Shown here in pieces: positions 14,711-36,584 of a stretch of 64,000 nt of DNA. Numbering within the stretch: the stretch's first letter is position 1; each line of letters opens with the position of its first letter. Source of the stretch: Escherichia coli (GTDB taxonomy: Bacteria > Pseudomonadota > Gammaproteobacteria > Enterobacterales > Enterobacteriaceae); assembly GCF_036507355.1 (NCBI RefSeq), contig NZ_AP027877.1; one strand, given 5' to 3'. The position numbers and the translations under genes were made by a program. The notes below the pieces were generated by a model, which was not told the DNA's origin, did no database searches, and saw only the letters and a list, made by a program, of their open reading frames with translations.

Positions 14711-14786
14711 TGGCTCCTCTGACTGGACTCGAACCAGTGACATACGGATTAACAGTCCGCCGTTCTACCGACTGAACTACAGAGGA
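14711..14786 (-). tRNA. asnV: tRNA-Asn (GUU)
   Basis: 76-nt exact tRNA-Asn sequence (reverse complement), ends in CCA. Confidence 0.97.
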
Positions 14787-17081: not shown

Positions 17082-17113
17082 CAAAAAGCCCGCTATAAAA
17101 GCGGGCTTTTCAG

Positions 17114-17135
17114 AAATCTGGCTCCTCTGACTGGA
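17114..17135. repeat. attL of asnU island: 22-nt direct repeat containing the tRNA-Asn 3' end
   Basis: aaatctggctcctctgactgga identical to 25212..25233; the tRNA body does not continue here. Confidence 0.8.
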
Positions 17136-17239
17136 TGCGGATTTTGTTGTAGTTTATTGAATTTAAATGATTTTTATGAGTAGAATAAAAATAAGGCCCT
17201 TAGAAAGGCCCCTCAGATATTTTTGCTTAAAAAGATGAT

Positions 17240-17500
17240 GTAAGTCACATTTTCAGGGGCTGTTACCTGGAGGTCTTAAAACCAACGAGAGGTCGTCATT
17301 CCTGGCGTATAGCGGGAATGCACCAGACATACAGAAACAGGGACTTGCACCAGCTTTAATATAGCTGGCTGCACCAGATCCTGGCGCTGCAAAAGTCCAT
17401 GATTGCGCCAGATTCTGAGGGATTACATCGATCTGAGCCAGAGTTGTCCCTTTGGGTTATAGCCTTTTCAGGTCAGGTGCTGTTACCCTTAGCTGGCCTT
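17240..17500 (+). ncRNA. Structured ORF-free leader upstream of the reverse transcriptase (candidate RT-associated ncRNA)
   Basis: Nested inverted repeats at 17341..17398, three copies of tgcaccag, direct repeat ttttcagg..gctgttacc at 17250 and 17465; no convincing ORF. Confidence 0.25.
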
Positions 17501-17793
17501 TACCCTTTTCCTTTTGACCGTCGGCTATGTGCCAAAAGCGGAATTCCAGTGGTTCTAGAAAAGCTATCATTCCATGGTCAAATTTTGTCGATCACTGCAC
17601 TTATGGAACCGCCATAACATAGGTAGATAGTTGAAGATAGCTAGAACGATGATAGATGATTTTCTTTACAGGGCTGACTTCTAGTCTATCTCATGTAATA
17701 CTCTATATTATATCTAATGTACAATATTAATAGCATTGTGATGTATCGACAACATGGATAGTCCACTGCTATTAAAACTATAATGACATTTAA

Positions 17794-18826
17794 TTGAGAA
17801 ATATAAAAATGACTCTATTAGAAAAATTGTTATCAAAAGGATACTTTCCTAAAGAAGCTCTCCCTCCTTTCTCTACGGAAAAATATGCACGCGCAATTGT
17901 GAATGGATACGATAATCTTCCCCAATTATTTAGAACCGGAAAATTCATAAGTAAGTGCGCTATTCATAATATTTCCAGAAAAGGTACATTACGGAGAAAA
18001 CTTGGAATACCTAATCCCATCAACTTCTTTAGATTAAGTGAGGCAATAACTGAAAATTGGTACGATATATATGAATGCGCAAGTGAATCAACAATATCGT
18101 TGACAACTCCAGACCCTGCCAGCAATGGCGGAAGAGCATTCAACCCAAAGCATTCATTAAATGAGCTTCCAGATATTCATGCAAAACTTAGAAGTAAACA
18201 TAAATATATACTTAAAACCGATATAAGCAGATTTTACCACTCAATATACACTCATAGTATTGCATGGACTTACCATACAAAAGATATTTCAAAAAGAAAC
18301 AGAAGCAATAGTTTATTTGGCAATGTATTAGACAAGCATTCGCAAGATTCGCAAGATGGACAAACAATAGGGCTCCCCATTGGTCCAGATACATCACTTA
18401 TCATAGCAGAGTCTCTGTTATCAAATATTGATCTTAAGCTTAGCGAAAAAGGCATTAGCAATGGCTTACGTTATATAGATGATTATTTCCTAGGGTTCAA
18501 TACAATTGGGGAAGCAGAATCTGCATTAACAATAATGCAGGAACTGTTAAACGAATATGAGTTAGCATTGAACCCCTTGAAAACAGAAATCATACAATTA
18601 CCAATTGAATTCGAGCCATTAGCAATTTCAGAACTAAGGGCATTTTCATTTAGAGATACAGCTGGCGGTCAGAAATCAGATTTAATGCATTATTTCAACA
18701 TAGCTTTCAAGGCAGCAAAAGATTTACCAACGGAACCAATATTAAAATATGCAGTATCAAGGACATTTGAAGTAAATGTTACTGCTGAAAACTATCCTGT
18801 TTTTGAAAATTTTATATTACAATGTG
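17794..18826 (+). pseudogene. Reverse transcriptase (stand-alone UG/DRT-like), 5' portion, interrupted by IS1
   Basis: RT motifs in order: RKLGIPNP (fingers), KTDISRFYHSI (motif A), GLPIGPDTSLIIAE (B'), LRYIDDYFLG (C, YxDD); TTG at 17794 or ATG at 17809; ORF runs into IS1. Confidence 0.8.
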
Positions 18827-18881
18827 GGTGATGCTGCCAACTTACTGATTTAGTGTATGATGGTGTTTTTGAGGTGCTCCA

Positions 18882-19157
18882 GTGGCTTCTGTTTCTATCA
18901 GCTGTCCCTCCTGTTCAGCTACTGACGGGGTGGTGCGTAACGGCAAAAGCACCGCCGGACATCAGCGCTATCTCTGCTCTCACTGTCGTAAAACATGGCA
19001 ACTGCAGTTCACTTACACCGCTTCTCAACCCGGTACGCACCAGAAAATCATTGATATGGCCATGAATGGCGTTGGATGCCGGGCAACAGCCCGCATTATG
19101 GGCGTTGGCCTCAACACGATTTTACGTCACTTAAAAAACTCAGGCCGCAGTCGGTAA
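18882..19157 (+). CDS. insA: IS1 protein InsA
   Basis: 91-aa ORF inside IS1. Confidence 0.95.
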
Positions 19158-19579
19158 CCTCGCGCATACAGCCGGGCAGTGACGTCATCGTCTGCGCGGA
19201 AATGGACGAACAGTGGGGCTATGTCGGGGCTAAATCGCGCCAGCGCTGGCTGTTTTACGCGTATGACAGGCTCCGGAAGACGGTTGTTGCGCACGTATTC
19301 GGTGAACGCACGATGGCGACGCTGGGGCGTCTTATGAGCCTGCTGTCACCCTTTGACGTGGTGATATGGATGACGGATGGCTGGCCGCTGTATGAATCCC
19401 GCCTGAAGGGAAAGCTGCACGTAATCAGCAAGCGATATACGCAGCGAATTGAGCGGCATAACCTGAATCTGAGGCAGCACCTGGCACGGCTGGGACGGAA
19501 GTCGCTGTCGTTCTCAAAATCGGTGGAGCTGCATGACAAAGTCATCGGGCATTATCTGAACATAAAACACTATCAATAA
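19076..19579 (+). CDS. insB: IS1 transposase InsB reading frame (made as InsAB' by frameshift)
   Basis: 167-aa ORF overlapping insA in the -1 frame. Confidence 0.9.
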
Positions 19580-19603
19580 GTTGGAGTCATTACCTACAAT
19601 GTG

Positions 19604-19881
19604 TTACAGCTGACAGTAGCACATTAAAATACACCGTCAATCAGCTTATAAAATACAAAAGAATAGGTTATGTTCAGAACGTTGAGAACATTTCGCATAT
19701 TTTGAGACAATTAGCAATAACTGAAAGCTCACTTGGCCATGGACACGAAGTTGCTTATTGCCTATGGCTTTATTTGATACTACGCATCCCCATACCAGAA
19801 GTCGTCGTTAAAAATGTGGTACCAATGAGAGATCCATTTGTTGCAATTTTGTTATGCGATTGCAGGCAAAAAACCTCATGA
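19604..19881 (+). pseudogene. Reverse transcriptase, 3' portion (C-terminal 92 codons)
   Basis: Reading frame of 17794..18826 resumes after IS1 minus one TSD copy and stays open to TGA at 19879..19881 (translated by hand). Confidence 0.7.
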
Positions 19882-20171
19882 CTTTTATACCTGATTTCTC
19901 AATTTATGAGCAAATGATGGTGATGGAAGAGCTATCGGGCGATATGTAGATTTTTGTCTATGAGATGCTTGCAAAAGGATGGTTTCAACCATTATCAAAC
20001 CAAAATCCAATTAGTCAAAATGAGTGTTATAGGTTCCTATTGAATTCAGGTGTTTTTTTCTATAATGAACATCTCTCATTAACTATTATGGCTGAAAGTC
20101 CAATTGATACAGATGGCTCGGCAGAGGGATTCAGTGGTTGAAATTAAAAATTATCTGTAAATAACTAACCC

Positions 20172-20201
20172 CCCTCCCTTTAATTTAATATTAAGGGAGG
20201 G
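20172..20201 (+). terminator. Stem-loop terminator downstream of RT region
   Basis: ccctccctt / aagggaggg inverted repeat with 12-nt loop, followed by ttgtgtttcg. Confidence 0.5.
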
Positions 20202-20449
20202 TTGTGTTTCGATATACATATATGGGCTTTGGTGAATAAATCAGATTTGGGATAAACATCCCTGGAGACAGTTGCAGCTGTCAGGTAATACGCACGCTTT
20301 TTGCTCAGAACCCCATCAATGCGCCGCCAGCACTTTTGCAGCCAGCCCAGTCGGGTTACGCCGTCTGGACTCCCAACTTTTGATGATATCGACGCTGGTT
20401 CCTTAGGGTTATTGCGTAACGATTTATTCTGCGCCAGTCATGAAAGCCG

Positions 20450-21409
20450 TTATTCCTTCTTCCATTCGTGCGCGTAAACCTGCTTCACCCAGCGACCGCG
20501 CCCGTCGCCATGCCCCAGGTCCATCGCCACCATTGCCAGCGCCTCTTTTTCGCTGAATCCCTGCGCCAGATACCGGCGAATATCGTCCTGCGCCAGATAC
20601 CGGCGAATATCGTCCTGCGCCCAGGCGTAACGCAGCGAATGTGGGGAGTATTTGCCCGTCAGCCCCATACGCAAAGTCTGGTTGCGCCAGTATTTCATTG
20701 CCTGTTTAAGGCTTGCCGCATCAATCAGCCTGCCGTTGCGCAGTCCTGCCACCACAATGGCATTATCGAGCGCCCGTTTAACTGCGCCAGCATTCTGAAT
20801 AAGGGTATCGCGGGGCCGCCCGCCTTTGGTGCCAAACACGATGGTTAGCCGGGTGGCTCCACGTTCAAGCGACTGCCGCCACGTCAGCAATGAACGTGAA
20901 CAGCGTACCGCCTCCTGTGAACGTAACCCCATCAGCCGCGCCAGCTCCAGCGCTGCCGCCAGTCCTGCGTCTTTCAGCCGGGCAGTCTCTGCCATCTGTT
21001 GATAATATTCCGGCGTGATGGCTTTCCGTGTACCATTGCGGGATACGCCAGCCAGCCCCAGCGATTTATTCGATATCCGCTCACTCTGCGCCAGTTTTTC
21101 GCGCCCGGCCTGCGTCAGTATTTTACGGATAGCCGCCGTTTCGTTATGCAGCGTCTGTTTCTGAATACCCTGCGCCAGTCGCATCTGAATATACGCCTCA
21201 ATATGCTTCGCCTTTAAATGATGGACATAGCGTATCTGAACGTTCAGTTCCGTCAGTCGTTCGCAGAACCGTTCTGCCATGGCGATACGGTCATGGACAG
21301 TCTTGTGCGCCCCGCCAGCCTGCCGCGCCAGGTTTTTCATCTCTCTTTCCAGCATACCCATTTTGCTTTTCCTCTTATCTCGCTCCTGATTTTCACAAAA
21401 CCACAACAC
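20450..21409 (-). CDS. Tyrosine recombinase-like protein (second recombinase of the island)
   Basis: 319 aa; box II-like HSLRYAWA and downstream LGHGDGRGRWVKQVYAH with candidate catalytic Tyr; contains in-frame 9-aa tandem duplication. Confidence 0.65.
   Translation of the reverse strand: MLWFCENQERDKRKSKMGMLEREMKNLARQAGGAHKTVHDRIAMAERFCERLTELNVQIRYVHHLKAKHIEAYIQMRLAQGIQKQTLHNETAAIRKILTQAGREKLAQSERISNKSLGLAGVSRNGTRKAITPEYYQQMAETARLKDAGLAAALELARLMGLRSQEAVRCSRSLLTWRQSLERGATRLTIVFGTKGGRPRDTLIQNAGAVKRALDNAIVVAGLRNGRLIDAASLKQAMKYWRNQTLRMGLTGKYSPHSLRYAWAQDDIRRYLAQDDIRRYLAQGFSEKEALAMVAMDLGHGDGRGRWVKQVYAHEWKKE
20565..20618. repeat. Perfect 27-bp tandem duplication inside the recombinase gene
   Basis: gccagataccggcgaatatcgtcctgc repeated twice, giving DDIRRYLAQ-DDIRRYLAQ. 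Confidence 0.9.
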
Positions 21410-22253
21410 ACAACGGATACAGCTTTCCCCGGCGCATAGGCCGATAGCCCCTGATTTTTGTCGGGGCTGCGAGCAGTACCTGAGCGCCGGGGCGACGGCT
21501 GTTGAGGTTTTGCGGGGTATCGGTTGTGCTCTCAGAGCAGCCGCCAGCGTGAGCTGGTCATCCCCCGGACCGTCCTGGTGGTCCCCCTCCGGTACTGGCT
21601 CATGTTCTCCTTTGGTGAATGAATGGTTGAAATAAATGCTGAAAAGCGACGTCAGAAGCTCGCCTGTGGCTGGAACAGTTGATATGACTGGTGCAGATGA
21701 AAATTTCTGCGGGCGTCAGTCTCTCACTCTGCGTGAGCGACTGACGCCCTGGTCTGGCGCAGGCGCTGAAAATTACACTCTGGTGCAGGATGGCGGCCAC
21801 GCGGCAGCAAATGCCTTCGGCAAATGCAGGCCGCAGCCCGTCATGTAAAGGGCGCTGGTAATCAGCAGGGTATAAGTGGGCCGGAGAAATTCCGGCAAAG
21901 AGAAACCGTGCAGCCGGTGAAGGCTGTTGCCGTTAAGCGATGACGATGAAGCCGTCCAGTGTATGTACTCTTAGCCTCAAACGCTTTCGCGTTCCGGTAT
22001 TGCGGAGGTCGTACCGGTAGCAGGGGGCTGGTCGTCCTGATAAATCAGGGGCTTCTTGCAGACCATGAAGCCAAAGGGGCTGTCAACCGACAGCTTATTG
22101 CAGGAGAGAGATTACACCGTAATTTCTGGCGCAGAAAGGGGAAACTCATTTTTCTGGAAATTGAGTTTCCCCCTGAATTTATGGAAAGTTTGTGAATGGA
22201 ACACTGCCGCGCTTCGCTTGTCGTCTCCCGGTGTGCGATTTGCTGTATCAGGA

Positions 22254-25211: not shown

Positions 25212-25233
25212 AAATCTGGCTCCTCTGACTGGA
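25212..25233. repeat. attR of asnU island (overlaps 3' end of intact tRNA-Asn)
   Basis: 22-nt perfect match to 17114..17135. Confidence 0.8.
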
Positions 25234-25292
25234 CTCGAACCAGTGACATACGGATTAACAGTCCGCCGTTCTACCGACTGAACTACAGAGGA
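25217..25292 (-). tRNA. asnU: tRNA-Asn (GUU)
   Basis: 76-nt exact tRNA-Asn sequence; position between cbl and yeeO. Confidence 0.97.
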
Positions 25293-27040: not shown

Positions 27041-27116
27041 TCCTCTGTAGTTCAGTCGGTAGAACGGCGGACTGTTAATCCGTATGTCACTGGTTCGAGT
27101 CCAGTCAGAGGAGCCA
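27041..27116 (+). tRNA. asnW: tRNA-Asn (GUU)
   Basis: 76-nt exact tRNA-Asn sequence, plus strand. Confidence 0.97.
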
Positions 27117-35427: not shown

Positions 35428-35503
35428 TGGCTCCTCTGACTGGACTCGAACCAGTGACATACGGATTAACAGTCCGCCGTTCTACCGACTGAACTACAGA
35501 GGA
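35428..35503 (-). tRNA. asnT: tRNA-Asn (GUU)
   Basis: 76-nt exact tRNA-Asn sequence. Confidence 0.97.
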
Positions 35504-36494: not shown

Positions 36495-36584
36495 GGAGAG
36501 ATGCCGGAGCGGCTGAACGGACCGGTCTCGAAAACCGGAGTAGGGGCAACTCTACCGGGGGTTCAAATCCCCCTCTCTCCGCCA
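36495..36584 (+). tRNA. serU: tRNA-Ser (CGA)
   Basis: 90-nt sequence GGAGAGATGCCGGAGCGGCTGAACGG...CTCTCCGCCA with long variable arm. Confidence 0.95.

Follow-up and report, generated by a model that had tools for sequence, protein, structure and literature searches.

The locus considered here lies in a 64-kb stretch of the Escherichia coli chromosome, called the window throughout and meaning all 64,000 nucleotides that were analysed. It holds a reverse transcriptase (RT) gene that is interrupted by the insertion sequence IS1 and preceded by about 660 bp of DNA, 17136-17793, without a convincing open reading frame (ORF). A first reading of the letters alone (the original prediction) recognized this ORF-free stretch correctly and proposed that it gives rise to a structured non-coding RNA (ncRNA) that works with a compact, stand-alone, DRT2/UG2-like RT. 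We are highly confident of a different reading, in which the locus is a decayed single-gene anti-phage RT of the UG12/DRT6 group, carried as cargo by an ~8-kb integrative element at a tRNA-Asn gene, and the 660 bp upstream is no leader RNA. The features of the locus, by position and strand, are the following.

17114-17135: distal attachment (att) direct repeat AAATCTGGCTCCTCTGACTGGA, 22 nt, directly after cbl (exact match by script)
17136..17536, no strand assigned: non-coding backbone arm of the integrative element (similarity to other arms stops at ~17536)
17193-17212, minus strand: terminator-like hairpin GGGGCCTTTCTAAGGGCCTT and then a T-run, near the outer end of the arm
17319, 17346, 17370 and 17404: copies of TGCRCCAG(A), all inside the arm
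~17537..17808, plus strand: AT-rich 5' flank of the RT cassette, ~270 bp
17809..18826, plus strand: 5' part of the RT gene, codons 1-339 and 1 nt, with the fingers, the palm and the start of a helical-repeat domain (ORF list, Pfam, PADLOC)
18827..19594, plus strand: IS1, 768 bp, with canonical terminal inverted repeats (script check of the ends)
18882-19157 and 19076-19579, plus strand: the insA and insB' reading frames of IS1
19604..19881, plus strand: middle part of the RT gene, codons 340-431, ending in a premature TGA at 19879-19881 (reconstruction)
19868..19873, plus strand: frameshift site, a run of six adenines (A6) against seven (A7) in intact alleles, a 1-nt homopolymer deletion
19878..20141, plus strand: displaced C-terminal 87 codons in the -1 frame, with an ATG that overlaps the premature TGA
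20142..20300, plus strand: 3' flank of the RT cassette, which moves with the gene (homology with Yersinia and Enterobacter loci stops at 20298-20300)

The RT gene starts at ATG 17809, where all homologues have the N-terminus MTLLE, and its first reading frame in the window runs to 18831. IS1 is flanked by a 9-bp target duplication, TACAATGTG, at 18818-18826 and 19595-19603, and is missing from the otherwise 99.9% identical allele of E. coli strain G4/9. When 18827..19603 is excised, a single ORF runs to TGA 19879-19881, with 431 codons counted from ATG 17809 or 436 from TTG 17794; the G4/9 annotation gives the same 431-residue product. The original prediction had reconstructed IS1, the duplication and the single ORF exactly, and took this ORF of ~432-437 codons for the whole gene. 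Intact alleles from E. coli, Yersinia and Enterobacter, however, encode 518 residues, and two further lesions, a frameshift and a TAG codon, had been missed. The intact alleles have the A7 run in the context CAAAAAAAC, both in E. coli (comparison loci L011-L015) and in Yersinia (L016/17), whereas the window and G4/9 have the A6 run in the context CAAAAAAC; the premature TGA at 19879-19881 is therefore a consequence of the A7 to A6 frameshift. The 87-residue product of the displaced piece matches positions 443-507 of 541 in the PADLOC Drt4 profile and 425-489 of 511 in the Drt6 profile. In the window this piece is itself interrupted by TAG at 19947-19949, where G4/9 has the TGG codon of W455, a residue invariant in the family. 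With the missing base restored, the window protein equals the intact allele of L013 over all 518 residues, and intact 518-residue alleles are found in the same island in E. coli. Searching a database with the 431-residue product joined to the next small ORF likewise returned full-length matches of exactly 518 residues, and homologues of this length are 87-92% identical in Enterobacteriaceae and 67-70% identical in Vibrio. The window copy is a pseudogene with three inactivating lesions (IS1, the frameshift and the TAG stop) and is certainly inactive; NCBI already lists the truncated product of 340 residues under WP_338388290.1. The case illustrates that the repair of one visible lesion, here IS1, can hide others, since the frameshift and the nonsense codon emerged only against intact alleles.

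The RT motifs reported for this gene are real. Pfam RVT_1 covers residues 111-268 (E 2.4e-14), YIDD stands at 222-225, and the catalytic residues D138 (motif A), D224 and D225 are invariant in an alignment of 37 family sequences. Family scoring with PADLOC was run on the repaired 518-residue protein. The highest scores went to the Drt4 model PDLC02177 (569.5 bits, E 1.9e-171, full length) and the Drt6 (UG12) model PDLC03748 (549.7 bits, E 1.8e-165, residues 3-505 against profile positions 3-489 of 511), with lower values for the UG15-derived Drt4 model (243 bits), UG30 (182), UG14 (154) and AbiK (152). Against the NCBIfam Drt4 equivalog NF041749 the 431-residue product reached 211.5 bits, below the cut-off of 450. 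The DRT2/UG2-like assignment found no counterpart in these searches: a Drt2 model was neither among the NCBIfam matches at E <= 1 nor among the best 25 PADLOC matches. The original prediction had judged that the gene fits retrons less well and group II introns not at all, and it is indeed neither of the two. The NCBIfam retron St85 model scored 39.6 bits (cut-off 235) and the TIGR04416 RT/maturase model 44.2 bits (cut-off 300); Rfam showed no retron RNA at E <= 1 and no intron RNA, and structural similarity to group II intron RTs stayed at a query-normalized template-modelling score (TMq) of ~0.38.

By sequence, the closest solved structure is 9wy8 (E 9.8e-69, residues 3-499, 31-32% identity), and UG15/DRT4 chains were matched at 8e-20. 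An AlphaFold model built on the 37 homologues (predicted local distance difference test score 91, predicted template-modelling score 0.90) consists of the RT followed by an all-helical C-terminal domain at residues ~285-500. The "short helical C-terminus" of the original prediction is thus an artefact of truncation. In Foldseek the best match to this predicted fold was again 9wy8, described there as "Cryo-EM structure of the hexameric DRT6" (TMq 0.89; target-normalized score, TMt, 0.93; root-mean-square deviation 2.2 Å); the identity of 9wy8 is taken from this fold-search description. Other matches followed at TMq ~0.80 for DRT4/UG15, 0.65-0.69 for AbiK and 0.56-0.61 for Abi-P2, and group II intron RTs, a retron and DRT9 reached at most 0.40. 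A C-terminal alpha-repeat domain is what defines class 1 of the UG/Abi RTs (Mestre et al. 2022, PMC9226505). Profile, sequence and predicted fold all place the RT in the UG12/DRT6 group of the class 1 UG/Abi RTs.

The gene is cargo of a mobile element. Its surroundings (ldtA, tRNA-Asn, nac, cbl) are E. coli chromosome, and the partner copy of the att repeat AAATCTGGCTCCTCTGACTGGA, located by script, is identical and lies at 25212-25233, overlapping at its 3' end the tRNA-Asn gene of 25217-25292 on the minus strand (ARAGORN); the last 17 nt of the 22-nt repeat are the 3' end of tRNA-Asn. The integrative element between the two copies measures ~8.1 kb, the RT sits at its far (distal) end, and the att layout is the same in G4/9. 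Gene content was read from the near-identical annotated G4/9 locus and from related loci: a P4-type tyrosine integrase beside the tRNA, three small helix-turn-helix genes, a fragment of a NadS gene, and a second "integrase-domain" gene (Phage_int_SAM_2 and Integrase_1) at 20450-21409 on the minus strand. The last of these contains an in-frame 27-bp tandem duplication at ~20560-20615, by which DDIRRYLAQ occurs twice; G4/9 has the same duplication, and the orthologue in L011 is shorter by 9 residues. Four tRNA-Asn genes and a tRNA-Ser(CGA) gene are found in the window (14711-14786, 25217-25292, 27041-27116, 35428-35503 and 36495-36584), and the element family uses at least two tRNA-Asn sites depending on the strain, one on the cbl side (the window and L013-L015) and one on the ldtA side (L011/L012 and the genome A30).

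To compare the upstream DNA, 17100-18826 was searched by megablast in 5,426 complete E. coli genomes. The RT part was matched only in G4/9, and the first ~435 nt of the query were found at 85-89% identity in 11 other genomes. In these 11 the arm follows a tRNA-Asn att fragment and precedes either the Lamassu genes LmuA/LmuB (AMSHJX01 and others) or Tmn (A30), and the backbone of NadS fragment and integrase-domain gene lies downstream of the cargo there too. A three-way alignment of the arms is nearly continuous to ~17536 and then collapses. Between the ~400-bp arm and the NadS-fragment/integrase-domain backbone there is accordingly a slot, ~17537-20300 in the window, whose cargo varies among E. 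coli: the DRT6-type RT in the window, Lamassu LmuA and LmuB in AMSHJX01-type genomes, and Tmn, a protein of 1,210 residues, in A30 (the slots with other cargo were delimited as L002 6746-10378 and L003 6830-9708). The small tRNA-Asn integrative element is a hotspot for defence cargo that carries DRT6, Lamassu or Tmn alternately. A literature search on a tRNA-Asn defence hotspot and on 9wy8 returned nothing useful.

The same comparison divides the 660 bp. Positions 17136-17536 are the conserved end of the element and are kept whichever cargo is carried; this portion is common to islands that hold Lamassu or Tmn and no RT, which removes the claim that the leader is the RT's RNA partner. Similarity of the window to other RT loci starts at 17529 for the Yersinia element and at 17711-17716 for the Enterobacter loci, and ends at ~20300 for both; Enterobacter shares only the ~97 bp of the flank nearest to the gene (17711-17808). 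Of the upstream DNA, the RT cassette accounts for no more than ~17537-17808, which looks like an ordinary AT-rich promoter region. A promoter-like match, TGGATA-18-TATAAT at 17755-17784, is a match to the consensus only and is poorly conserved in Yersinia and Enterobacter, and is not relied on here. In Enterobacter, whose RT alleles are 91-92% identical, the RT start lies only 118 bp downstream of the end of a GmrSD gene, so that a protein-coding gene occupies the position homologous to the supposed leader, an outcome that the original prediction had itself named as refuting it. The upstream ~660 bp is a mosaic of an att repeat, a ~400-bp arm and a ~270-bp flank, not a leader RNA.

Nothing else upstream travels with the RT. 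At homologous loci the upstream interval is only 118-133 bp, and the neighbours are GmrSD, SLATT/HEPN or housekeeping genes. Upstream similarity stops at close relatives; the ~130-bp gaps of the Vibrio and E. ludwigii homologues have no similarity to the upstream DNA of the window. Across the compared contexts there is no conserved partner gene or upstream element for the RT, the neighbours differing each time, and the description of the gene as a stand-alone defence-associated RT with no fused or adjacent effector proved correct. The Enterobacter-type GmrSD is a type IV restriction enzyme that matches PADLOC mREase_IV over its full length (L004 3993-5882, L005 821-2710 and L006 446-2335), and in L005 the Enterobacter-type RT cassette adjoins a P4-type integrase and a DUF927 protein; these loci are a further mobile defence setting of the cassette. 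A Vibrio parahaemolyticus homologue (69% identity; L007 4286-7293) stands between SLATT_5 and HEPN_AbiU2, beside an integrase next to smpB, in the setting of a defence island; this SLATT association was not found in the enterobacterial loci.

Within the arm, the repeats and the nested hairpin listed in the original prediction exist in the sequence. There are three exact copies of TGCACCAG, together with TGCGCCAGA at 17404, and a 15-nt direct repeat, TCAGGxGCTGTTACC, at 17253-17267 and 17473-17487; the second and third of the four TGCRCCAG copies are not conserved among arm variants, unlike the first and the fourth. The extended motif TGCRCCAGA occurs 10 times in the 64 kb, 9 of them inside the element; ~1.2 occurrences are expected per 64 kb, and none of 100 shuffles reaches 10. 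Sites of TGCRCCAG(A) are at 17319-17412, 20562-20597, 21753-21787, 22125 and 24462. A distant BLAST search of the arm in E. coli genomes contributed no more than a partial match of 110 nt (75% identity, 32 genomes). In LF82 this match is an internal CTGCRCCAG array of a related island (L018 4911-5172) with 6 or 7 copies spaced by 27-34 bp, which informs on the motif and not on an RNA. The integrase of the element carries an arm-type DNA-binding domain (PF13356). Because of the enrichment, the LF82 array and this domain, our preferred reading is an att arm or a regulatory region whose repeats would bind protein; the TGCRCCAG repeats would most likely be sites for the recombination or regulatory proteins of the element, as judged from the sequence.

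Claims about RNA structure were examined by folding against shuffled sequences. The whole leader gave a z-score of -2.4 from only 20 shuffles, which is marginal. The arm, 17136-17536, gave -2.59 on the plus strand, with 1 of 100 shuffles folding as well, and -1.55 on the minus strand; the RT-linked flank, 17529-17808, is unstructured (z -0.03). The "dense structure" of the original prediction is therefore marginal for the whole leader and limited to 17136-17536, with none in the flank linked to the RT. The nested hairpin at 17341-17398 folds at -25.5 kcal/mol (z -2.87), whereas in the arms of A30 and AMSHJX01 the orthologous segment reaches only -9 and -10 kcal/mol (z +0.9 and +0.6), and the changes in the outer stem between arm variants are uncompensated; the nested hairpin is specific to the window lineage. 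Two Rfam scans (E <= 1) returned nothing at or above any gathering score. The sub-threshold hit to STnc430 (28.6 bits against 47) was set aside, being two terminator-like hairpins and AT-rich DNA that span the cbl terminator and the att site. No conserved ORF was found in the arm, where stop-free stretches vary in frame and length between variants, and a 25-codon minus-strand ORF common to the variants was rejected as coding because it shows only non-synonymous differences. The 21-mer ATGCACCAGACATACAGAAAC of the arm had 0 matches in species-representative genomes. The arms of A30 and AMSHJX01 have conserved the minus-strand hairpin of 17193-17212, which could end a leftward element transcript.

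These data bear on the alternative that survives best, namely that the arm 17136-17536 is a small RNA or cis-acting RNA of the element, independent of the RT, which might for example regulate excision or cargo expression. Such an RNA would account for the 85-89% identity that ~400 bp of non-coding DNA retain next to exchanged cargo, for the plus-strand folding, which 1 in 100 shuffles equals, and for the terminator-like hairpin on the minus strand. However, Rfam holds no match at gathering score, with STnc430 below its threshold, the arm variants do not share the best local structure, whose outer-stem changes go uncompensated, only three sequence variants are available, too few for covariation, and an att arm with protein-binding repeats explains the conservation equally well. 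We regard an element RNA as unlikely and prefer the arm as a recombination or regulatory end of the element.

A second alternative concerns the A6 allele of strains similar to G4/9, not the window copy. Among public contigs the 431-residue product is found on ~160, the 87-residue product on 172 and intact alleles on ~43; sequencing error as the cause of the frameshift is ruled out, as the allele occurs on ~160 contigs from several sources. All frameshifted alleles, further-decayed variants included, have one amino-acid background, a pattern that fits a single ancestral event and then clonal spread and decay. Loss from the A-run probably came first, and IS1 (at codon 340) and the TAG later, in particular lineages. 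The A6 allele, which lacks the last 87 in-frame residues, is most likely inactive by analogy with DRT4, because DRT4 no longer gives immunity once its alpha-repeat domain has lost 38 C-terminal residues (PMC9226505). It might instead be the OFF state of a poly-A phase switch, or a two-piece enzyme made of the 431-residue RT and an 87-residue C-terminal fragment re-initiated at the overlapping ATGA, a proposal we consider quite improbable. The frameshift does sit in a homopolymer (A7 to A6), the premature TGA does overlap the in-frame ATG of the downstream piece, and the allele does outnumber intact ones. Yet a single event with clonal spread is enough to explain one amino-acid background, the second background, P0124, has no A6 allele, and the lineage decays further, with lost start codons, truncations and, in the window, IS1 and the stop at W455; the DRT4 deletion and the shortness of a run of 6-7 adenines for efficient slippage also count against it. 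Phase variation at the A-run found no support, all A6 alleles being on one background. If the poly-A run were an ON/OFF contingency switch, or A6 a working split enzyme, to either of which we attach very little credence, E. coli could tune a constitutively DNA-synthesizing and potentially costly defence, and the copy in the window would be dead regardless.

Least tenable, and in our judgement hardly worth further consideration, is a DRT2/UG2-like class 2 RT whose cDNA synthesis is scaffolded or templated by a structured ncRNA encoded in the ~660 bp upstream: the long ORF-free stretch, the fold scores of the whole leader and its local hairpin, and the existence of 5' ncRNAs in some UG/Abi groups (PMC9226505) speak for it, but the protein is class 1 by profile, sequence and fold and has the helical-repeat domain that class 2 is missing, all flagged repeats lie in the arm common to the RT-less Lamassu/Tmn islands, the hairpin does not fold in orthologous arms and the RT-linked flank is unstructured, and Enterobacter has GmrSD, and Vibrio and E. 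ludwigii short dissimilar gaps, where the leader should be.

Several points weigh against the reading of the locus as a decayed DRT6-type cargo gene with no leader RNA. The top PADLOC model is labelled Drt4, not Drt6, and the subgroup label depends on the model set. Identity to the characterized Sphingopyxis DRT6 is only 31-32%, and the function of the E. coli/Enterobacter clade is a prediction from homology. Opposite the priming Tyr125 of DRT4 this RT has a His. The plus strand of the arm folds somewhat better than shuffled DNA, and we only infer what the arm does. The A6 allele, finally, outnumbers the intact one in the collection, which could mean that it is tolerated or useful and not simply dead.

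The system had been thought possibly uncharacterized. It is already known: existing profiles recognize the RT at E ~1e-170, its proteins are in public databases, and the mechanism and structure of the family are published. UG12 was named "DRT6" and gives defence against T5 and ZL-19 that depends on the RT active site (PMC9226505). DRT4 is a hexamer that constitutively makes random single-stranded DNA (ssDNA) with no template or nucleic-acid primer, the DNA being covalently attached at Tyr125 (Wang et al. 2025, PMC12783706). Host ExoI degrades this DNA until T5 ORF55 shields its 3' end, which leads to toxic accumulation and abortive infection (PMC12783706). According to the same study DRT6, too, makes protein-linked DNA without a template, is activated by ORF55 and is toxic when sbcB is knocked out, and neither DRT4 nor DRT6 requires an ncRNA (PMC12783706).

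The intact 518-residue protein probably works like DRT6/DRT4, by homology only (31-32% identity, template-modelling score 0.89). It would assemble as a hexamer and continuously make ssDNA of undefined sequence, with no template and primed from one of its own residues, which a host 3'-5' exonuclease would clear. In an infected cell the ssDNA would be shielded by an ssDNA-binding protein of the phage (ORF55 of T5 in published cases), and it would then accumulate and kill the cell before the phage cycle is completed; an RNA partner would play no part. The priming Tyr125 of DRT4 falls opposite His115 in the phmmer alignment to the UG15 chain, in a weak stretch of that alignment, and Y143 and Y147 are invariant in the clade of this RT across the 37 sequences.

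For the annotation of such loci it follows that a long ORF-free, hairpin-bearing stretch in front of a stand-alone RT does not amount to evidence for an ncRNA of the DRT2 kind; in this case the stretch is mostly the conserved end of the carrier element. Of minor interest are the alternation of defence cargo in a tRNA-Asn element and a frameshifted DRT6 allele that outnumbers the intact one in public E. coli assemblies.

Among known systems, DRT2 (UG2) resembles this RT as a stand-alone, compact defence RT of the UG/Abi lineage with no separate effector gene. DRT2 differs in belonging to class 2, without a C-terminal repeat domain, and in needing a conserved, highly expressed and reverse-transcribed upstream ncRNA, whereas the RT of the window has a class 1 fold and no upstream element conserved with it. 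AbiK (7r06/7r07) and Abi-P2 (7r08) share class 1, the arrangement of RT and helical repeats, a hexameric state and protein-primed untemplated DNA synthesis, and are detectable by profile; they are set apart by 16-19% identity, by other positions of the priming residue and by other hosts (lactococcal plasmids and P2 prophages). DRT4 (UG15) of E. coli 12-c8-a (9vdo, 9vdv, 9l9s) is like it in class, overall fold, single-gene organization and YIDD, and presumably in the protein-primed, template-independent mechanism and the ORF55-type trigger (PMC12783706), but identity is 21-23% and the score lies below the Drt4 cut-off. With DRT6 (UG12; Sphingopyxis sp. PHR10625.1, cryo-EM 9wy8) only about one third of the residues are identical and the window copy has been inactivated three times, yet the two agree in length class, in the layout of an RT with a C-terminal helical-repeat domain, in a Y(I/V)DD box at the same position (222-225 here, D223/D224 in DRT6) and in being a single gene in defence or mobile-element contexts.

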